Of a stretch of DNA of 64,000 nt, positions 4,880-42,040 are shown piece by piece. The notes under the pieces were generated by a model, which did not search any database, was not told the origin of the DNA, and saw nothing but the letters and a program-made list of their open reading frames with translations. The position numbers were made by a program, and so were the translations under genes. The first letter of the stretch is position 1; each line of letters begins with the position of its first letter. The stretch comes from Gemmatimonadaceae bacterium. Its GTDB lineage: Bacteria; Gemmatimonadota; Gemmatimonadetes; Gemmatimonadales; Gemmatimonadaceae. The DNA lies in contig DASTVV010000144.1 in NCBI GenBank assembly GCA_035758925.1, positions 1,281 to 65,280 on the forward strand, given 5' to 3'.

Positions 4880-5695
4880 TTGCCGTCTTCGCAATTCAGT
4901 TTGACCGGCCGCTCCGCCATAGTCACCGGCGGCTACGGCGTCCTTGGTGGTTGCATCGCGTCGGGCCTCGCGACGGCCGGCGCGCGCGTCGCGATCCTCG
5001 GCAGAAAGCGCGACTCCGCGGAAGCGAAGGCGCAGGAACTTCGCGCCGCGGGTGTGGAGTCCATCGCGCTGGTGGCGGACGTTCTGGACGAGGGCGCCGT
5101 CCGCGCGGCCAGCGAGACTTTGCGATCCACTTGGGGCAAGGTTGACATTCTGATCAACGCCGCCGGCGGCAACGTCGCTCGCGCCCGTAACGACAATCGC
5201 AGCGTGTTCGACGTGCCGATGGATGCGCTCGACGAAGCGCTTCGGCTCAACCTGCACGGCTCTCTCATCCCGTCGATGATCTTTGGCCAGGCGATGGCGC
5301 ACGTCGGTTCCGGCTGCATCGTGAACATCTCGTCGATGGCCGCGATTCAGGCCCTCAGTGGCGTCCTGGGCTACTCCATCGCGAAAGCGGGGATCGACAA
5401 CTTCACGCGTTGGCTTGCGGTGGAGCTGGCTCGCCGGCATGGCGACGGCCTGCGCGTGAATGCCGTGGCGCCAGGGTTTTTCGTGACCGAGCAGAATCGC
5501 AACGTCCTCGTGAAGCCCGACGGCTCGCCGACGGATCGCGCGCGCACGATCATCGCGCGCACTCCGATGGGTCGCTTCGGCAAACCTGAAGAGCTGGTCG
5601 GCGCGGTGCAGTGGTTGTGCAGCGACGCGGCGTCGTTCGTTACCGGAGCCGTGATTCCGGTGGACGGCGGCTTCAGTGCATTCAGCGGCGTCTGA
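4880..5695 (+). CDS. short-chain dehydrogenase/reductase, probable D-mannonate/fructuronate oxidoreductase (SDR-type UxuB)
   Basis: TTG start. Rossmann motif [12 protein letters not shown], a NAAG motif, and catalytic Y-x3-K (YSIAKAG). Sits immediately upstream of uxuA-eda-kdgK. The substrate assignment is contextual. Confidence 0.8.
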
Positions 5696-5715
5696 CCCAC
5701 GCGCGGCAGACGACG

Positions 5716-6753
5716 ATGCAGATGAGCTTCCGGTGGTTCGGCGCGGACGATCCCGTGAGGCTGGAATTCATCCGGCAGATTCCCGGAGTCACCGGGATCG
5801 TGAGCGCGCTGCATGACGTTCCGGCCGGCGAGGTGTGGCCGAAAGACGCGCTCTGGCGGCTGCGCGAACGAATCGAGCGGTCGGGATTCCAGTTCGTGGT
5901 CGCCGAGAGCATCCCGGTGCACGAGGACATCAAGCTCGGCCGGCCATCGGCCGATGGCCTGATCGACAACTATTGCACCAGCGTCGCGCATCTCGGCGCA
6001 GCCGGCGTCCCCGTGCTGTGCTACAACTTCATGCCCATCTTCGACTGGACACGCACGTCGCTCGATTCGCGTCTGGACGATGGGTCGAGCGCACTGGCCT
6101 ACGACGACGCCGCCCTGCAGCGCGTGGACCTCAGCCGTGGAACGCGCGACCTCCCGGGCTGGGGTGCAGCCTACGACGCGGCGCAACTCCAGGCCCTGCT
6201 GGCGGCGTACAAGAACGTGCCCGCGGAACGTCTCTGGGAGAATCTCGCACACTTTCTCGCGCGCGTGGTTCCGGTCGCGGCGTCTGTCGGAGTCAGGATG
6301 GCGATCCATCCCGACGACCCACCATGGCCCATCTTCGGTCTGCCGCGCATCATCACCAATGCGGCGGCGCTGCGTCGTTTCGTCAGCCTGGTGGACAATC
6401 CCGCGAATGGCGTCACGTTCTGCACGGGTTCACTCGGCGCCGATCCGGCGAACGACCTGCCGTCGATGGTTCGCGAGCTGGGCTCGCGAATCCATTTTGC
6501 CCACTGTCGCAACGTGCGCGTCACCGGGCCGCGCCGATTCAATGAAAGCCCGCATCCGTCGCGGTTCGGCAGTGTGAACATGTTGAATGTCCTGCGAGCG
6601 CTCCACAATGTTGGTTTCGGCGGCCCCGTGCGTCCTGATCACGGGCGCATGATCTGGGGCGAAACCGGCCGACCCGGCTATGGTCTGTACGACCGCGCGC
6701 TGGGCGCGATGTATCTCCAGGGTCTCTGGGAAGCGATCGACAACCAACCATGA
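5716..6753 (+). CDS. uxuA: mannonate dehydratase
   Basis: Begins [32 protein letters not shown], the canonical UxuA N-terminus. About 345 aa. The track start 5611 overlaps the SDR gene and is rejected. Confidence 0.9.
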
Positions 6754-7400
6754 CCGACGTCATCGGCGTTTTTCGCGAATGCAAGATCGTCCCGGTCCTC
6801 GTCATCGAGGATCCGGCGTCCGCGGTCCCCGTTGCGCAGGCGCTGGCGGCCGGCGGGCTCACCTGCGCCGAAGTCACCTTTCGCACTGCGCGCGCGACCG
6901 AGGTGCTCAGCCGCATGACCGGCGAAGTGCCCGGGCTGCTCGCGGGCGCCGGCACGGTGCTCTCGGTGAAACAGGCGCAGGACGCACGCGTGGCCGGCGC
7001 GAAATTCATCGTCGCACCGGGCTTCAACCCCGAGGTCGCGGCCTTCTGTGCCGAGCGACAGTTGCCGTACTTCCCCGGCATCGCCACGCCGACGGAGCTG
7101 GAGCGCGCGCTCGGGCATGATCTGCACGTGCTCAAGCTCTTTCCCGCCGAACCGCTGGGAGGCGTCACGTATCTGAAGGCGATCGCCGCGCCGTACGGCA
7201 GCGCAGTGGAGTTCATGCCGACCGGCGGAATCTCGGCCTCCAACATCGGCTCGTACCTCGCGCTGAAACAGGTTGTCGCCTGCGGCGGATCGTGGATGGC
7301 GCCGGCCGAGTGGGTGAAGGCCGGCAGGTTCGACGCGATTCGCGAAGAGACGGCAAAGGCCGTTGCTGCCGCGCGTCCACTATCCGGTGCTACCGCATGA
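6750..7400 (+). CDS. eda: 2-dehydro-3-deoxyphosphogluconate / 4-hydroxy-2-oxoglutarate aldolase
   Basis: ATGA overlap with the uxuA stop. [22 protein letters not shown]...EVTFRT... and KLFPAE..GG...LKA..P motifs typical of KDPG aldolase. 216 aa. Confidence 0.9.
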
Positions 7401-8464
7401 CCGCCGCACGACAGACGACGTGCGTCGTCACGCTCGGTGAGTTGATGCTGCGACTCAAGTCGCCGGGCTTCGAGCGGTTGTTCCAAAGCCCGGCGCTCGA
7501 GGCGACCTTCGGCGGCGCCGAAGCCAACGTAGCGGTGTCGCTCGCCCAGTTCGGCGTGGCCGCCCGGTTCGTGAGTGCCATTCCTTCCAACAACATCGGT
7601 GACGCTGGCGTCGCCGAGTTGCGTCGGCACGGCGTGGACACGTCGTACATCAAACGGCAGGGCGAGCGGCTCGGCGTCTACTTTCTCGAGGCCGGCGCCA
7701 ACCAGCGGCCCTCCAAGGTCACCTACGATCGCGCGGGCGCGGCGATCGCGGCGGCCGATCCGTCAGCGTTCGACTGGAGCGCCATATTCGCCGGCGCCGA
7801 CTGGTTCCATGTGAGTGGTGTCACGCCTGCCATCAGCCAGAGTGCGGCCGACGTGGCGATGGCAGCGGCGCGTGCCGCACGCAAGAACGGACTCACCGTG
7901 TCCGTGGACTACAACTATCGCAAGAACCTGTGGCGCTATGGCAAGAAGGCGCCCGAGATCATGCGCGTCCTGGTAGCGGAGGCGCACGTCGGAATTGCGA
8001 ACGAGGAAGATTGTCAGCAAGCCCTCGGCATCGAGGCCGGCGGGAAGGGCGGCACGTCCTCCGACGTCACGAGCGGTGCGCTGCAGCTGGATTATTATCG
8101 GGCGCTCGCCGAGCGCGTTCTGAAGGAGTTTCCCAACCTCACGCACCAGTCCATCACGCTGCGCGAGAGTCACAGCGCGGACCGCAATGGCTGGTCCGCG
8201 GTGCTTGCGACGCGCGACAAGTTTCTGCACAGCCGCCGCTACGAGATCACCGACATCGTCGATCGCGTCGGCGCGGGCGACTCGTTTGCGGCAGGCCTCA
8301 TTCACGGATTACGCGCGTACAAGGATGACGCGCAGCGGGCGCTGGAGTTTGCGACCGCCGCGTCCTGCCTCAAGCACTCCATCCTCGGCGACTTCAATCG
8401 TGTGACGGTCGCGGAAGTGGAATCCCTGGTCGGTGGAGACGCCAGCGGCCGGGTACAGCGATGA
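7397..8464 (+). CDS. kdgK: 2-dehydro-3-deoxygluconokinase (PfkB/ribokinase family)
   Basis: ATGA overlap with the eda stop. N-terminal [11 protein letters not shown], an ANVAVSLAQ motif, and C-terminal [17 protein letters not shown] (PfkB signature). About 355 aa. Confidence 0.88.
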
Positions 8465-9846
8465 AACGGCCGACGGCGGACCACGAGGCGGAGCTAAAGG
8501 CGGATCTGACTGCCGACCTGAAGGCGGGCGTCAGGTCCGATGTAAGCTCCGAACTCAGGTCCGATGTAGGATCCGATGTTCGGTCCGCCGTTTTGGGTTA
8601 TCGGTGGCGGATCGTCGCGCTGCTCTTCTTCGCGACCACGATCAACTACGTCGACCGCCAGGTGCTGGGCATCCTCGCGCCGACGCTGCAGCGCGAGCTG
8701 AGCTGGAGCGAAACCGACTATGGCGCGATCGTGTCGTGGTTCAGCTTCGCGTACGGCATCGGCCTGCTGCTCACCGGGCGTATCCTCGACGCCGTGGGCA
8801 CACGCATCGGGTTCTCGGTGGCCATCGTCACGTGGAGTTTCGCGGCGATGGCCCACGCGATCGCCCGCTCGGTCACCGGCTTTGGACTCGTGCGAGGACT
8901 TCTTGGCCTCGGCGAGTCCGCGAACTTTCCCGCGGCGATCAAGACCGTGGCGCAGTGGTTCCCGCAAAAGGAGCGAGCGCTGGCCGTCGGGATATTCAAC
9001 GCCGGCAGCAACGTCGGTGCGATCGTGGCGCCGCTCGTTGTACCATGGATCGCGCTGACGCTGGGGTGGCGCTGGGCGTTCATCATCACCGGAGCGATCG
9101 GCTTCGTGTGGCTGGTGTTCTGGCTGGCCACGTATCGCGAACCGGAACATCACGCCCGAGTGTCACGGGAAGAATTGCAGCACATTCGCCGCGATGAAAC
9201 GCGCGAAGTCACCAGCACCTCGAATGACGTCTCGTGGCTCCAGGTGTTGCGCCAGCGCCAGACGTGGGCGTTCGTCGTCGGAAAGACGATGACGGATCCG
9301 GTGTGGTACTTCTATCTGTTCTGGCTCCCGAAGTTTCTCGACACGAGCTTCGGCGTGCAGCTCAAGGGCTTGGCGGCGCCGCTCATCGCGATCTATCTCG
9401 TCGCGGACGTCGGTTCCGTAGGCGGCGGGTGGATCTCCAGCTGGTTCCTCACACGCGGCTGGAGCGTGAACCGCAGCCGAAAGACCGCGATGCTGATCGC
9501 GGCGCTGTTGATCGCGCCCACGATGTTCGCGCCGCGGGCGCAAAGCTTATGGATAGCGGTGGCATTGGTGAGCGTCGCCGCCGCGGCGCACCAGTGGTGG
9601 TCGGCGAACCTGTTCACGACGGTGAGCGACCTGTTCCCGCGCCGCGCCGTCGCGACCGTGGTCGGCATCGGCGGGTTCGGAGGCGCCATGGCAGGCATGG
9701 CGTTTCAGCGAGGGACGGGACGTCTCCTCGACGCCACGCATGGCAATTACGCCCCGATCTTCGTGGTGTGCGGGCTCACCTACCTCGTCGCGCTCGCGAT
9801 CGTGCATCTCCTGGTGCCGCGCATGCGCCCGGCGAGACTCGAATAA
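8461..9846 (+). CDS. exuT: MFS transporter, hexuronate transporter (ExuT)-like
   Basis: ATGA overlap with the kdgK stop. [27 protein letters not shown]...DYG is the ExuT/ACS-family N-terminus, followed by about 12 TM segments. The first 44 codons are a repetitive segment (see repeat 8473..8591). An in-frame TTG at 8593 is an alternative start. Confidence 0.85.
8473..8591. repeat. imperfect 120-nt palindrome built from two opposed arrays of 12-nt tandem repeats
   Basis: A perfect 10-nt inverted repeat ACGGCGGACC (8473-8482) / GGTCCGCCGT (8582-8591) flanks the element. Left: 5 units of about AAGGCGGAnCTG. Right: 5 units of about AGGTCCGATGTA (8533-8544 and 8557-8568 are identical). The cores CGGAnCT / AGnTCCG are complementary. 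TTTT follows. Confidence 0.75.
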
Positions 9847-9854
9847 TCCGAGCA

Positions 9855-10044
9855 GGGGACCGGGGACACGGGACAAGGGACAAAGGCAACTGACTGGGGA
9901 ACAGAGAAGGGGAATGGTTGACGGATGAGGTGATGCCTCGTCCCCGTCCTTCCATTCCCCTTCTCCGTTCCCCTTTCCCGAGTCAGTTGCCCGTGTCCCG
10001 TGTCCCGTGTCCCGTGTCCCATGTCCCATGTCCCATGTCCCCGG
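9855..10044. repeat. long imperfect hairpin of opposed heptamer tandem repeats (GGGACAN)n / (NTGTCCC)n; G-quadruplex/i-motif prone
   Basis: The left arm 9855-9917 and right arm 9952-10044 are near reverse complements (shared GGCAACTGACT...GAGAAGGGGAATGG, one 7-nt indel). The right arm carries CCCGTGT x4 plus CCCATGT x3 plus CCCC (8 C3 tracts, 9990-10042). The left arm has 4 G3-4 tracts. The loop is about 34 nt. Confidence 0.85.
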
Positions 10045-10118
10045 TCAATCGTTGACAGCACCCGGGCTTCGGCCCAATGATGGCATTAATAAGGTGACTT
10101 GGCGACATTAGAGGCCCC

Positions 10119-11363
10119 ATGAAAATCATCGACGTCCGCGCCACCCCTGTGACCGTGCCGCTCGAGGCGCCGCTGCGCCATGCGAACGGCTGTCACTGGG
10201 GTCGCTTCGTGCGTACGATCGTCGAGGTCGAGACGGACGACGGCATCGTGGGGCTGGGGGAGATGGGTGGCGGCGGGGAAACCGCCGTCGCTGCTTTCCA
10301 GGGGCTCAAGTCGTACCTGGTTGGTCGCGATCCGTGCAGGCTCGAGGAGATGCGCTTCCTCATCGCGAATCCAACCGCCTCCCTCTACAACAACCGAACG
10401 CAGATCCTGGCGGCGCTCGAGTTCGCGTGCCTCGACATCATGGGGCAGAAATGGGGCGTCCCCGTGTGCGACATCCTCGGTGGACGGATGCGCGACTACG
10501 TGCCATTCGCCTCATACCTGTTCTTCCGCTACCCCAACGTCGACAACGGTGCGGGCGAGATCCGGACGTGCGATCAGCTGGTCGACGAAGCCAAGCTGCT
10601 CAAGAAGCGGTACGGCTTCACGACGCACAAGCTGAAGGGTGGCGTGTTCAACCCGAAGTACGAGTTGGAGTGCTATCGCGCGCTTGCCGAGTCCCTTCCC
10701 GGCGACAGCTTCCGTTTCGATCCGAATGGCGTGTGGTCGGCGGAGCAAGCCATCTGGTTCGGGCGTCACATCGAGGGGTTGAACAACGACTACCTCGAGG
10801 ACCCTGTCTTCGGCATGCACGGCATGCGGCGCACGCGTGAGAAAGTGAAAATGCCGCTCGCGACCAACACGGTCGTCGTCGGCTTCGAGCAGCTGGCGGC
10901 CAACGTGCTGCACACGGCCGTGGACGTCATCCTCCTCGACACGACGTTCTGGGGCGGCATCCGCCCGTGTCTCAAGGCGGCCTCTATCTGTGAAGCGTTT
11001 CAGCTGGGTGTCGCGGTCCATTCGTCCGGCGAGCTCGGGATTCAGCTCGCGACCATGCTGCACCTTGGCGCGGCGTTGCCCAACCTGACGTTCGCGGCGG
11101 ACGCGCACTATCACCATCTCAAGGACGACGTCATCGTTGGCGGCAAGCTGCAGTACTGCCGCGGCGCGATCCCGGTGCCCACTGCGCCCGGACTTGGCGT
11201 GAAGCTCGACCGCGAACGCCTCGGAACGTATCATGAGTTGTTCTGCCGGCTGGGTCCTTACCCGTACGACCAGGATCCGCTGCGGCCCGGTTGGACGCCG
11301 CTCGTTCCCAACGAGCGTTGGGCCGATCCCGCTGACGCGCGCGTCCCGCACGTCCCGCTCTAG
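10119..11363 (+). CDS. enolase-superfamily acid-sugar dehydratase, glucarate dehydratase (GudD)-like
   Basis: Collinear with E. coli GudD from memory: [27 protein letters not shown] (KxK), [25 protein letters not shown]. 414 aa, with an AGAGG RBS before the ATG. Confidence 0.85.
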
Positions 11364-17492: not shown

Positions 17493-18532
17493 TGAAGAAT
17501 GTCGTGCGCCTTGGTGCGCTCACCCTGGCGGGTCTGCTCGCGATCGCCTGCGTTGGCGGCGACAAGGGCCAGTCGGCCGACACCGCGCAGGCCGCCGCGG
17601 GGAAACCGGGTGATACCATCACCATCGCGATGATCGCCAAGAGCTCGAACAATCCCGTCTTCCTGGCGGCGCGTACGGGCGCCGAAGAAGCCGCTCGCGA
17701 TCTGTCGAAGAAGCATGCGATCACCGTCAACGTCCTCTGGTTGACGCCACCGCAGGAAGATGGTCAGGTGCAGGCGCAGCGTATCCAGCAGGCCGTGAAC
17801 GACGGCGCGGACGCGATCCTCATTTCGTGCAGCGACGCCGGCAAGGTGACAGGCGCGATCAACGACGCGGTGGCCCGGGGCGTCGCCGTGATGACGTTCG
17901 ACAGCGACGCGCCCGCGTCGAAGCGCTTTGCGTACTATGGCGTGGACGACGTCAAGACGGGCCAGCAGACCATGGCCGAGTTGGCGACGATCATGAATGG
18001 CAAGGGCAAGGTCGCGATCCTCGCGGGCAACCAGAACGCGCCCAACTTGCAGAACCGGGTGCGCGGCGCGAAGGAAGAGGCCGCGAAGCACCCCGGCATG
18101 CAGGTGGTTGGCACGTTCAACCACATCGAGACGCCGCAGGATGCGGCAGCCGAAGTGATTCGCGTGAACAACGCGTATCCCGAGATCACCGGCTGGGCGA
18201 TGATCGGCGGCTGGCCGCTGTTCACGCAGTCGCTGCTCACGGATCTCGATCCCAAGCGCATCAAGGTCGTCTCGGTCGACGCGCTGCCGGCGGAGCTCGC
18301 GTACGTGGACAAGGGCGTCGTGCCGGTCCTGCTGGCGCAGTCGGTCTACAAGTGGGGCTCGGTTGGCGTCGAGACGATCGTGGACAAGGTGCACTTCAAG
18401 AAGGACGTCCCGGCGGTGATTCCCATGGAGCTGGTGCGCGTGAGCAAGGACAACCTGGGTGAATGGTCGCGGCAGCTGAAAGCCTGGGGCTTCACCGATG
18501 TCCCCGCGGCGTACCTCAGTCTCAGCAAGTAG
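17492..18532 (+). CDS. sugar ABC transporter substrate-binding lipoprotein (type I PBP, RbsB/XylF-like)
   Basis: TGATG overlap with the permease stop. MKNVVRLGALTLAGLLAIAC has a lipobox. IAMIAKSSNNPVF...DAILIS... pattern of the periplasmic sugar-binding fold. The track ORF 16772.. is an out-of-frame N-terminal artefact over the permease. Confidence 0.85.
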   Translation: MKNVVRLGALTLAGLLAIACVGGDKGQSADTAQAAAGKPGDTITIAMIAKSSNNPVFLAARTGAEEAARDLSKKHAITVNVLWLTPPQEDGQVQAQRIQQAVNDGADAILISCSDAGKVTGAINDAVARGVAVMTFDSDAPASKRFAYYGVDDVKTGQQTMAELATIMNGKGKVAILAGNQNAPNLQNRVRGAKEEAAKHPGMQVVGTFNHIETPQDAAAEVIRVNNAYPEITGWAMIGGWPLFTQSLLTDLDPKRIKVVSVDALPAELAYVDKGVVPVLLAQSVYKWGSVGVETIVDKVHFKKDVPAVIPMELVRVSKDNLGEWSRQLKAWGFTDVPAAYLSLSK

Positions 18533-18650
18533 GGCTTACCAGCGGCTTTAACTAAGGCTTTTAGGCGGTTTTAACAGCGGCTTTAGCAGCGGCGGAGTTG
18601 TTCGCATTTGGACCGCAGTCAAAGCCGCAGTCAAAGCCGTAGTCAAATCC
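18532..18650. repeat. opposed arrays of about 12-nt tandem repeats forming an imperfect hairpin, inside the ABC operon
   Basis: Left: 5 units with GGCTT(T/A) cores at 18533, 18544, 18556, 18567 and 18579 (period 11-12). Right: CCGCAGTCAAAG x2 (18613-18636, identical) plus CCGTAGTCAAAT. The reverse complement of the right units (GCGGCTTTGACT) matches the left units (GCGGCTTTAACT / GCGGCTTTAGCA). Confidence 0.75.
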
Positions 18651-28043: not shown

Positions 28044-28122
28044 GCGGAATGGGAATGGGAGATGGGAATGGGTCGGAAACAGCATTAGTTGGCCCCATTC
28101 CCATTCCCTTTCCCCATTCCGC
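28044..28122. repeat. hairpin of opposed GGGAAT-type short tandem repeats; G-quadruplex prone on both strands
   Basis: The left arm GCGGAATGGGAATGGGAGATGGGAATGGG (28044-28072) matches the reverse complement of the right arm (28094-28122) at 23/29 positions, with a 21-nt loop. Each arm carries 4 G3 (or C3) tracts. It shares GGGGAATGG with the 9855 element. Confidence 0.8.
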
Positions 28123-28148
28123 CGTTCGTATCTCCTGAGGATTCGCGC

Positions 28149-39443: not shown

Positions 39444-40916
39444 ATGCGACTCCACCGTCGGTCGGACCTGAGCGCCGGCGAAGCGTCGCTGTTTGACGCA
39501 GCGCTGTCGCGCCTTGCCGCGATGCCCGCGGATCCTGACGACCGGATTCGCACGTTCCTCTCTCCGCAAAAACCGACGTACATCGGACGCGCTCCCGGCC
39601 GCCTGGACGTCATGGGTGGGATAGCGGACTACAGCGGAGCGCTCGTGCTGGAGATGCCGCTCGATCGCGCCACGTTCGCTTTCGTCCAGCGCCACCCATC
39701 GATGCGGTGTGAGATTGCCACCCGGCGCGACAACGCCTGGCAGTTTTTCGCGATCGAGCTGACGCGGCTACTCTCGGGCGACCTGCGTGACCCGGCGAGC
39801 CTCGCCGACAGGTTTGCCAAGGGAGACCCGGCCGACGCGTGGGCGGCATACGTGGTGGGAGTCGTTCAACTTTGCGCAGAGCGCGCCGACGTCACTGCTC
39901 TCGTTCGCGGCGGCTTTCGCATCCTGATCGATTCCAGCGTGCCCGAAGGAAAGGGCGTGAGCTCGTCGGCCGCGCTCGAAGTGGCGGCAATGTCAGCCGT
40001 CGCTGCGGCCCTCGACGTGCCCGTGGGTGCGTCGGACATCGCCACGGCGTGCCAGTGGGTGGAGAATCACATCGTCGGCGCACCGTGCGGCATCATGGAC
40101 CAGATGACGAGTGCGTGCGGCCGACGCGACCGGCTGCTGCGCTTGCGCTGTCAGCCAGCCGTCGCCGACGGATTCGTCAGCGTCCCCTGGGGCTTCCGAT
40201 TCTTCGGCATCGATTCCGGTGTGAAGCACGCTGTGTCCGGCAGCGCCTACGGGCGCGTGCGCACGGCGGCGTTCATGGGTTATCGCATCATCGCGGAGCG
40301 CGCGGGCCTCAAGGCATCGGTGGACGGTCACGGTCGCGCCCACGTGGACGATGCTCGCTGGCGCGGCTATCTGGCCAACATCCCGCTCGCCGACTTCGCG
40401 CGCTTCGAGTCCGAGCTTCCAGTCGAAATGATGGGCTCGGACTTCCTCGCGACGTACGGCGGCACCACCGACAACGCCACGCGCGTCCGGCCCGACGAGC
40501 GCTATGCAGTGCGCGCGGCCACCGCGCATCCGGTGAACGAGCAGGATCGTGTCGACCGCTTTGCCCGGCTGCTGCCGGACTTGTCCCGGGCCGACGCAAC
40601 CCGAGAGCTGGGGCAACTCATGCTCGATTCACACGCCAGCTACAGCGCGTGCGGACTGGGCTCCCCCGAGACGGATCGTCTGGTTGAGATGGTGCGGGAC
40701 GCTGGTCCGGAACGCGGTTTGTTCGGCGCCAAGATCACCGGCGGAGGCAGCGGCGGCACAGTCGCGATACTCGGCCGCGCCGACGCCGAGACAGTGGTCC
40801 GGGATATCGCCGCGCGCTACGCAGCGGAAACCGGACTGTCGGCCGAGCTGTTCCTCAATTCGGGTCCCGGTGCCGAGGAAACCGGAGTATTACTTCTCGA
40901 TTCTCACGACGCCTGA
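39444..40916 (+). CDS. GHMP-family sugar-1-kinase, L-arabinokinase-like rather than canonical GalK
   Basis: GRAPGRLDVMGGIADYSGALVLEMPL (GalK has GRVNLIGEHTDY here), GHMP motif II SSVPEGKGVSSSAALEVA, and motif III KITGGGSGGTV. 490 aa. Confidence 0.8.
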   Translation: MRLHRRSDLSAGEASLFDAALSRLAAMPADPDDRIRTFLSPQKPTYIGRAPGRLDVMGGIADYSGALVLEMPLDRATFAFVQRHPSMRCEIATRRDNAWQFFAIELTRLLSGDLRDPASLADRFAKGDPADAWAAYVVGVVQLCAERADVTALVRGGFRILIDSSVPEGKGVSSSAALEVAAMSAVAAALDVPVGASDIATACQWVENHIVGAPCGIMDQMTSACGRRDRLLRLRCQPAVADGFVSVPWGFRFFGIDSGVKHAVSGSAYGRVRTAAFMGYRIIAERAGLKASVDGHGRAHVDDARWRGYLANIPLADFARFESELPVEMMGSDFLATYGGTTDNATRVRPDERYAVRAATAHPVNEQDRVDRFARLLPDLSRADATRELGQLMLDSHASYSACGLGSPETDRLVEMVRDAGPERGLFGAKITGGGSGGTVAILGRADAETVVRDIAARYAAETGLSAELFLNSGPGAEETGVLLLDSHDA

Positions 40917-40978
40917 CGCATCACGCATGCAGACGCATGGCGGATGACGCATGCTGACGCATGGCGAATGACGCATGT
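40914..40978. repeat. 24-nt tandem repeat x about 2.7 (GACGCATG-rich) between convergent genes
   Basis: ATCACGCATGCAGACGCATGGCGG (40920-40943), ATGACGCATGCTGACGCATGGCGA (40944-40967), then ATGACGCATG... (40968-). The core GACGCATG occurs 5 times, plus one CACGCATG variant. Contains GCATGC palindromes. Confidence 0.8.
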
Positions 40979-42040
40979 CTAGGCTGGCCGCTCCCACCGA
41001 TGCGTCTCCGCCGATCGGAACAGCGCGTCGATCACCTCCAGGTTCGCGATCGAGTCCTCGAGCGTGACCGGCACGTCCTCATCACCGCGCAGTGCCCTGC
41101 AGAAGTGGTCTGTCTGCAGCGTGTACTGATCGACAATGGGGAACTCGATCACCTCGGCCGCCGCGCTGGCAACCTTGCTTCCGTCGTCCACGAAGATCCG
41201 ACACGGCCGATCCGTCGGCGGCGGTGGCGGCGCGTTGAACGGGATCTCGATCATGATACGGCCGCGCGTCCCGAAGATCTCCATACGCTGAAACGGTACC
41301 AGCTGCCCCGCGCACGTGAACGCCGCCTGACCTGACGGGAATCGCAACATCGCCGAGAGCAGTCGGTCGATGTGCATGTCGGGATCACGCTCGATCATGG
41401 CGATCGCTTCCGTCGGTTCTTCGTCGAATAGCCATCGGGACATGGTGATCGGGTAGCATCCGATGTCGAAGAGCGCGCCGCCGCCGAACTCGAGGCGGCT
41501 GCGCACGTCATGCGGATCGCGCCTGAAATAGCTGAAGTGCCCGGCGACGAGGCGCAGGTCTCCGATGCGGCCCGATCGAGCCAGGCGGCGCGCCTCCAGC
41601 CACTGCGGATGGGTGCGCACCATGAACGCTTCCTCGATCACGCGACCGGTGTGTCGTCGCACTTCCAGCAGCTGTCGTGCTTCCGCCGCCGAGGTGGCGA
41701 TTGGCTTCTCACACAGAACGTGCTTTCCTGCGTGCGCCGCCTTGATGGTCCACGGCACGTGCAGGTGGTTGGGCAGCGGGATGTATACCGCTTCGATCGC
41801 CGGGTCCTCGAGCAGCTCTTCGTACGAGCCGTAGGCACGGTCGATCCCCTGGGCGTTCGCGGCCTTGCGCGCCTTGTCGATGTCGCGTGACGCGATCGCC
41901 TCTACACGAGCGAGCGCGCTCTTGCGCATCGCGGGAATGACTTTGGTGAGTGCGATGCTGGCCGTGCCCAGAATGCCCCAGCGCACCGGCTCAGCCGACC
42001 GCTTGGCGTCGCTCATCGCTTGGCGCTGACGCCCTACCAA
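40979..42040 (-). CDS. Gfo/Idh/MocA-family NAD(P)-dependent oxidoreductase
   Basis: Rossmann N-terminus VRWGILGTASIALTKVIPA and an EKP motif (VLCEKPIA). The start is 42040 or the ATG at 42016. It overlaps the upstream AKR stop by 7 nt. Confidence 0.85.
   Translation of the reverse strand: MVGRQRQAMSDAKRSAEPVRWGILGTASIALTKVIPAMRKSALARVEAIASRDIDKARKAANAQGIDRAYGSYEELLEDPAIEAVYIPLPNHLHVPWTIKAAHAGKHVLCEKPIATSAAEARQLLEVRRHTGRVIEEAFMVRTHPQWLEARRLARSGRIGDLRLVAGHFSYFRRDPHDVRSRLEFGGGALFDIGCYPITMSRWLFDEEPTEAIAMIERDPDMHIDRLLSAMLRFPSGQAAFTCAGQLVPFQRMEIFGTRGRIMIEIPFNAPPPPPTDRPCRIFVDDGSKVASAAAEVIEFPIVDQYTLQTDHFCRALRGDEDVPVTLEDSIANLEVIDALFRSAETHRWERPA

Follow-up and report, generated by a model that had tools for sequence, protein, structure and literature searches.

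The hairpin downstream of an MFS transporter gene

The window, that is the whole stretch of 64,000 nucleotides that was analysed, carries on its plus strand an MFS-type transporter gene (8593-9846; Pfam MFS_1, 1e-55), named exuT in the preliminary description, and downstream of it, on the same strand, a gene of the enolase superfamily (10119-11363; MR_MLE_N and MR_MLE_C domains in Pfam). The start of the transporter gene was placed by a codon-usage gene caller; the longest ORF of this gene starts at 8461 and would translate a hairpin located at 8473-8591, which the codon-usage start at 8593 leaves intergenic. The TAA stop codon of the transporter gene lies at 9844-9846 and, 8 nt after it, begins an element of 190 bases (9855-10044) for which a single long imperfect hairpin was predicted. 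The RNA fold of the element reached -133.7 kcal/mol compared to -76.1 ± 4.2 kcal/mol for shuffled sequences (z -13.8), and the DNA fold -74.9 kcal/mol (z -13.0). The long hairpin of opposed arrays that had been described from the letters of the sequence is thus real.

All the modules of the element are given here on the plus strand. The left arm opens with an outer module (9855-9884) containing the four heptamers GGGGACC, GGGGACA, CGGGACA and AGGGACA (9855-9882), continues with an 18-nt core of type A, GGCAACTGACTGGGGAAC (9885-9902), which was delimited by the arm alignment and a core scan, and ends with an inner module (9903-9925) made of the degenerate 13-mers AGAGAAGGGGAAT and GGTTGACGGA. 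The apex (9926-9944, unstranded) consists, in the predicted RNA and DNA folds, of a short apical stem, GAGG/CCTC, and a loop; the loop of this copy, of about 20 nt, holds no ORF. On the other side, the C-rich 13-mers TCCATTCCCCTTC and TCCGTTCCCCTTT of the right inner module (9945-9973), recognised as a direct repeat and from the fold, pair with 9903-9925 and are followed by the right core, also of type A and in reverse complement, TTTCCCGAGTCAGTTGCC (9974-9991; core scan and arm alignment). The right outer module (9990-10044) is an expanded C-rich heptamer array, delimited by Tandem Repeats Finder, pattern counts and the quadruplex scan, with four CCCGTGT units (9990-10017), three CCCATGT units (10018-10038) and then CCCCGG. 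Tandem Repeats Finder reported CCCGTGT with 7.4 copies and 97% match at 9990-10041, and three GGGACAA-type units in the left arm at 9863-9883. The two-unit pattern GGGACANGGGACA, with at most one mismatch, was counted nine times in the element compared to 0.3 times per whole window in shuffled sequences. The earlier account of the arms as heptamer arrays applies to the outer modules, with four units on the left and seven on the right, but not to the inside of the hairpin, which is formed by the 18-nt core and the 13-mers. In the predicted fold, the surplus heptamers of the right arm are mostly unpaired or paired in alternative registers.

Between the element and the downstream gene, the sigma-70-like hexamers TTGACA-18-AATGAT (10052-10081, plus strand), already pointed out in the preliminary description, form a candidate promoter recognised by consensus match only, with a score of 10/12 where 0.1 such matches are expected. 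The hairpin is followed by GGTCAATCGTTGACA, without a U-run or T-run, and a terminator scan gave no site at the element, which is therefore not a canonical intrinsic terminator. A search of Rfam with the element gave no rRNA; what it matched were families of generic long hairpins, never above threshold, and among these the microRNA matches were all far below the gathering scores and were rejected as generic long hairpins.

A dispersed family of modular repeats

The window belongs to an assembly of a soil Gemmatimonadaceae bacterium of 4.6 Mb in 238 contigs (93% complete, 65.7% G+C). A scan of this genome for (GGGACAN)n arrays, as suggested with the first description of the hairpin, exposed a repeat family. 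A BLAST search with the element against the assembly gave 68 matches with 68-92% identity, and an nhmmer profile built from 24 seed arms detected 70 arms at 45 loci, corresponding to 25 pairs and about 20 solo arms. The structure is thus not particular to the exuT junction but is one copy of this dispersed family.

The arm alignment showed the same order from the outer to the inner end: about four GGGGACN heptamers, the core, and one to three GGNTGAGGGGAMC 13-mers, the type to which the inner units of the window hairpin belong. An arm measures 75-80 nt and a full element is made of two inverted arms. Two core types were found, type A (CAACTGACTGGGGAAC / GGGCAACTGACTGGGGAAC) and type B (CAACTACAACNGCGGGAAC / GGGCAACTACAACNGCGGGAAC), and the type A core is the most conserved non-repetitive block of the family. 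The pairs combine these cores as AA in nine cases, AB in six and BB in three, the remainder being ambiguous. In all 25 adjacent pairs the G-rich arm comes first, so that either strand reads the G-rich arm and then the C-rich arm. For full copies, the predicted folding energies run from -100 to -152 kcal/mol.

Copies of the family are about 70% alike, and the window copy is atypical only in its right array, expanded to seven heptamers. Most of the 24 seed arms have four heptamers, with conserved G-runs and a variable seventh base; the figure of four is that of the arm alignment, the heptamer counts obtained with regular expressions being unreliable and agreeing with it only partly. Slippage, which had been proposed for the imbalance of four against seven units, fits this distribution, since most arms of the seed alignment have four units and few are expanded. 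The two arms of a copy were not more complementary to each other than to the arms of different copies (0.693 vs 0.688, permutation p 0.25), so that selection for pairing is not apparent beyond what the family consensus provides, and no compensatory changes between arms were seen in this comparison. On contig C115 of the assembly, a 434-aa ORF without Pfam match (5586-6890) has a solo C-arm (5505-5554) on one side and a full element (6886-7054) on the other.

The repeat family is lineage-restricted. The element was found in none of the 40 relatives searched (genomes of the genus, family and order), and an exact 25-nt pattern, which occurs in about 15 copies of this genome, gave no match in 185,579 species genomes. 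The same pattern matched two contigs of one metagenome. One of these two, L032, is orthologous to contig C226 of our assembly, with 86% identity in the coding flank. The named relatives of a flanking gene are from Gemmatimonadaceae MAGs.

Anchoring at stop codons

The genes of the whole genome were called with a codon-usage caller written for it (4058 genes, 89% coding). Of 67 outer arm ends, 31 were located at a distance between -1 and 11 nt from the stop codon of a gene whose 3' end faces the arm, a position that 7.6% of the intergenic bases would satisfy (binomial p 1.3e-17). When only the arm ends facing the 3' end of a gene were considered, 31 of 35 lay within 11 nt of the stop codon of that gene. 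The arm ends facing the 5' end of a gene were mostly 1 to about 260 nt away from it, with four located farther. In the convergent gene pairs on contigs C25, C110, C124 and C230, the whole gap is taken up by the element. All the copies of the family lie between protein genes and none lies in helix 25 or 45 of 23S rRNA.

Filled and empty orthologous junctions

In the other 10 genomes of the genus, the MFS/enolase-superfamily gene pair is without an orthologue, and no other assembly encoding the downstream protein was found. As this gene pair lacks an orthologue, the junction is not comparable across the genus, and two other loci of the family were compared instead.

The first is the junction that follows the oxidoreductase-like gene of C226, before a MoxR-like gene. 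This junction is short and empty in many Gemmatimonadaceae; elsewhere it is occupied by unrelated gene-less hairpins (L043, L051) or by GxxExxY cassettes (L037, L045, L046, L050, L062). The second is the junction that follows a fumarylacetoacetase gene, where the element of our genome starts 0 nt after the stop codon. Arrays unrelated to it occupy the same position, likewise at 0 nt, in 5 of 19 other genera. Orthologous sites are thus filled in some genomes and empty in others. The contigs L150, L154, L159, L160 and L165, from five Gemmatimonadaceae genera, carry at the fumarylacetoacetase junction tandem arrays or opposed-array hairpins, and in L159 the TGA stop codon of the fumarylacetoacetase gene is itself part of the repeating unit.

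In L031, from a related species, a full element stands between two genes that lie on different contigs in our genome, where the second gene is preceded by a solo C-arm; the regions compared with L031 were C124:57768-58129 and C226:34323-34835. This suggests a rearrangement at the element, which would be one origin of solo arms.

Related hairpins and gene cassettes

The widest pair of the family (534 nt), on C226, has its two arms 378 nt apart, with a fragment of a PF05635 gene between them. A longer copy of this gene, without the deletion, appears to be present on the orthologous contig L032. PF05635 is the 23S rRNA IVS protein S23p, an Avd-like four-helix bundle, and PF13366 is GxxExxY, a protein of the PD-(D/E)XK type. 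C226 is the only one of the 45 loci that carries a gene, truncated or degenerate, and it is conceivable that the hairpin was there first and acquired this gene, instead of descending from it.

Genes of these two families are bracketed by similar structures. The genome contains seven PF05635 and nine PF13366 genes; the inverted repeats flanking six of the seven and six of the nine, respectively, scored above all 400 random controls, and each bracketed gene has its own short tandem unit. In other Gemmatimonadota genomes, 24 of 29 PF05635 loci exceeded the maximum of the random controls of our genome, and the arms were made of tandem 6-9-mers. Bracketing was measured by local-alignment score, the RNAduplex energies of 220-nt flanks having failed to separate cassettes from random GC-rich sequence. 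The phylum sample was scored against the random-genome control because different genomes share array units, which makes cross-locus pairing a poor control. The outermost pair in RNAfold was unusable as an element boundary, since the folds extended into the flanks. A scan for inverted repeats with exact 9-mer seeds returned mostly noise from coding regions, yet uncovered the GxxExxY cassettes.

At the scale of the genome, 156 intergenic gaps contained an inverted repeat scoring above every shuffle. Long inverted repeats were present in 23% of the convergent, 6.5% of the tandem and 2.7% of the divergent gaps, and are concentrated at the 3' ends of genes. The 156 repeats form at least 10 sequence families, each with 5-17 copies, to which several of the other junction hairpins of the window belong. 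Hairpins of the same build with units lacking G-runs (GCATGCGTCA, CGCCGATCAA, ACAGCTN) occur in this genome just as frequently, so that quadruplex potential is a property of the window family and not a common principle. The window junctions at 8473-8591, 18532-18650, 28044-28125 and 40914-40980 contain similarly built hairpins or arrays, whose units are GGCGGAnC, GGCTTTnACAGC, GGGAAT and GACGCATG. Among the dispersed families of the genome, the GGGAAT type has 15 and the GCATGCGTCA type 13 strong copies. One S23p gene, on C13, has the GGCTTTGACAGC type next to it, and another, on C230, is bracketed by the GACGCATG type. In the literature, we found no paper on such elements in Gemmatimonadota and none on S23p or GxxExxY cassettes outside rRNA.

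RNase III and reverse transcriptase

We searched for RNase III with several signatures. PF14622 gave no match in the genome of the window and PF00636 none in 11 genomes of the genus; a tblastn search with E. coli Rnc gave a best E-value of 0.58, and a signature search was also negative in the genome and the genus. In the phylum sample, the RNase III domain was detected in 0 of 42 genomes of the class of the window, compared to 18 of 19 genomes of other classes. Judging from these domain searches, the class Gemmatimonadetes as a whole appears to lack RNase III, which we did not find stated in a review. Processing of the hairpin by RNase III in the manner of an IVS was rejected, the enzyme not being detectable.

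In the same way, no reverse transcriptase was found in the genome (93% complete), and a link to a retroelement or DGR through the Avd-like gene was rejected for this reason.

A probable stable hairpin at the 3' end of the transporter mRNA

The window hairpin is in our opinion probably a gene-less copy of a lineage-restricted, stop-anchored dispersed family with the cassette design of an IVS, and one that gives the transporter mRNA a stable 3' hairpin. The number of heptamers would drift by slippage, the right arm of the window copy having presumably grown to seven. The family belongs to a class of opposed-tandem-array hairpins, which brackets S23p genes in this genome and in the phylum and GxxExxY genes in this genome, and persists also without a gene. 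Established by the data are the membership of the window hairpin in the family, the build of the arms, their anchoring at stop codons, the connection with gene-carrying cassettes and the occurrence of both filled and empty orthologous sites. Hairpins of this class would come and go at orthologous junctions, lodging at the base after a stop codon, and the elements may well spread by copying; movement of the copies of the family was not seen, and the searches for a Y1 transposase and a reverse transcriptase gave no candidate for a mobilising enzyme in the genome (93% complete).

Transcription of the MFS gene is predicted to produce, at the 3' end of the message, an imperfect RNA duplex of about 75 pairs. 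This duplex would end or insulate the transcript and block 3' exonucleases, and the next gene would use its own promoter. As RNase III is not detectable in the class, the duplex would stay intact, unlike the IVSs of rRNA, which are excised. REPs are established as 3' stabilisers and terminators of mRNA (PMC3116915, PMC2817692), and the function that we propose for the window hairpin is modelled on these roles. The most likely effect of the element is to leave, at the 3' end of the transporter transcript, a lasting RNA duplex by which this transcript is terminated or protected.

Alternative explanations

The main rival to this reading is a role based on four-stranded structures. The G-arm would form a quadruplex, in the RNA or in the non-template DNA, and the C-arm an i-motif, and these would pause or terminate transcription or offer a platform to proteins, the hairpin being secondary. 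Quadruplex potential, as announced in the preliminary description, is real at the motif level: canonical G3+N1-7 motifs with four G-runs are present at 9855-9879 on the plus strand and, in tandem, at 9990-10013 and 10018-10042 on the minus strand, and G4Hunter gave +1.72 for the left arm and -1.80 for the right arm. Fifty-two of the 307 quadruplex motifs of the genome lie within the 70 arms of the family, which represent 0.15% of the genome. The conservation of the G-runs beside a variable seventh base points in the same direction, as does the common number of units, four, which is the minimum for a quadruplex; the G-arm, first in all 25 pairs, would also be the first to be transcribed, whichever side transcription comes from. 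Rehm et al. (2015, PMC4692102) reported that (GGGGACT)4 forms a quadruplex with a T1/2 above 95 °C in KCl, and they obtained i-motif spectra with the C-rich complement up to pH 6.5. These data back the potential of the window arms since the unit is almost the same (GGGGACC/A and GGGACAC/T in the window), and the four-unit preference, the proximity to stop codons and the convergent pairs in Xanthomonas described in that work agree with the family as well.

A quadruplex role for the element is plausible from these motifs, but that four-stranded structures are its main agent seems to us unlikely. At least nine other families of this genome have the same build and the same placement with units that lack G-runs, and in some of the gene-carrying cassettes (C185, C230) the C-rich arm comes first. 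When both arms are present, the competing predicted duplex is moreover very stable (-134 kcal/mol as RNA). The approximately 20 solo arms show that an element often survives the loss of its pairing, as would be expected under decay as much as under function.

We also considered that the element could be a classical MITE, that is, a deletion derivative of an IS moved in trans by the IS transposase through its terminal inverted repeats. In favour of this, the family is multicopy and intergenic, with elements of about 170 nt and inverted ends, its orthologous sites are filled or empty between relatives, and the Rfam matches of the window copy are sub-threshold and to generic long hairpins. However, the alignment of 70 outer flanks, in which the repeat arrays blur the boundaries, showed no conserved motif and no visible target-site duplication or direct repeat; a gene of the size of a transposase is not enclosed by any arm pair, the only enclosed gene being the fragment of a four-helix bundle, and no parent IS with these termini was found. 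The copies are 70% alike and not near-identical. We know of no IS family with flush anchoring at stop codons, and a MITE origin is in our view improbable.

A large bidirectional terminator evolved by the host, of local origin and copied by ordinary recombination without selfish spread, would account for the placement flush with stop codons, for the enrichment in convergent gaps and for the elements that fill such gaps entirely (those on C25, C110, C230 and C124). We judge it very improbable: an arbitrary 18-nt core common to 45 loci requires copying between unrelated sites, genomes of the same genus are entirely without the element, and neither a U-tract after the hairpin nor compensatory changes between the arms were observed. 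Least probable of all is a REP/BIME or REPIN-type element kept by a domesticated RAYT (Y1) transposase, with which the family shares an extragenic location biased to gene 3' ends, inverted doublets alongside decayed singlets, mosaic arm types (AA, AB, BB) and restriction to one lineage, since the Y1 transposase domain PF01797 had no match in the genome (93% complete) whereas the control search gave matches in 6 genomes, and since single arms of 75-80 nt are not palindromic alone and begin with GGGGAC, without a GTAG or CGTC head.

Wider meaning of the hairpin family

More tentatively, and with less confidence than in the reading of the window hairpin as a gene-less family copy, we raise a broader proposal, which we think possible but doubtful. 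Opposed-array hairpins, whether or not an S23p or GxxExxY gene is present in the loop, would form a distinct class of mobile cassettes, inserted at the base after a stop codon and represented by many families in the Gemmatimonadetes, which appear to have lost RNase III and would thereby be unable to cleave long RNA duplexes. The window hairpin would be a non-autonomous member, and the heptamers of Xanthomonas and cyanobacteria as well as the rRNA IVSs would belong to the same class.

If the preferred reading of the hairpin holds, an odd single hairpin becomes a tractable family with 45 copies, modular arms, a clear polarity and a sharp stop-codon rule, on which the roles of terminator, stabiliser and quadruplex would be separable. 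The four-unit heptamers located near stop codons in Xanthomonas and Nostoc and the S23p-bearing IVSs of 23S rRNA would be tied to gene-carrying hairpin cassettes that turn over at gene junctions, and a testable lead would be available on what the S23p and GxxExxY proteins do. The apparent absence of RNase III in a class rich in long transcribed hairpins would also suggest a link between the loss of dsRNA processing and the tolerance or use of such hairpins.

Comparison with known systems

The hairpin differs from an intrinsic terminator by the lack of a following U-run. With the REP, BIME and REPIN elements of Proteobacteria, the family has in common that it consists of dispersed extragenic palindromes, restricted to a lineage and located at gene 3' ends, with inverted doublets, decayed singlets and mosaic unit types. 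Its unit, of 75-80 nt, is made of tandem short repeats and is not self-palindromic, unlike the REP unit, which is an imperfect palindrome of 20-40 nt, and neither a RAYT gene nor a GTAG or CGTC head was found here.

The IVS of the 23S rRNA of Coxiella burnetii has a 28-bp terminal stem, tandem heptamers that vary between strains and an S23p ORF, and is excised by RNase III (Warrier et al. 2016, PMC4990558). The family resembles such S23p-type IVSs in its long stem of terminal inverted repeats containing tandem short repeats, in the variable copy number of the heptamers, in the existence of gene-less hairpin versions and in a PF05635 gene in the loop that is prone to decay (here on C226 only); both have been proposed as selfish elements. 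Unlike these IVSs, the copies described here follow the stop codons of protein genes instead of lying in helix 25 or 45 of 23S rRNA, they occupy 45 loci, where an IVS is found once in each rRNA operon, an ORF is lacking in the window copy, and RNase III, the excising enzyme, is not detectable in this class.

The G-rich heptamers described by Rehm et al. (2015, PMC4692102) are GGGAATC in Xanthomonas and GGGGA(C/T)T in Nostoc. They are intergenic, located within 50 nt of stop codons and variable in copy number with a preference for four units, and the Xanthomonas genomes each contain about 70 convergent array pairs that could form stem-loops. The present family departs from these repeats in four respects: the heptamers are here only the outer module of an arm whose inner part comprises a conserved 18-nt core and 13-mers, all the pairs share one polarity, the distance between outer end and stop codon is 0-11 nt instead of up to 50 nt, and one copy encloses an S23p-family gene, whereas that work links the repeats to no gene cassette. 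The two systems are alike in a nearly identical unit (GGGGACN here, GGGGACT there), in the four-unit preference with variable copy number, in the intergenic location near stop codons and in being depleted between divergent genes, where long inverted repeats occur here in 2.7% of the gaps.
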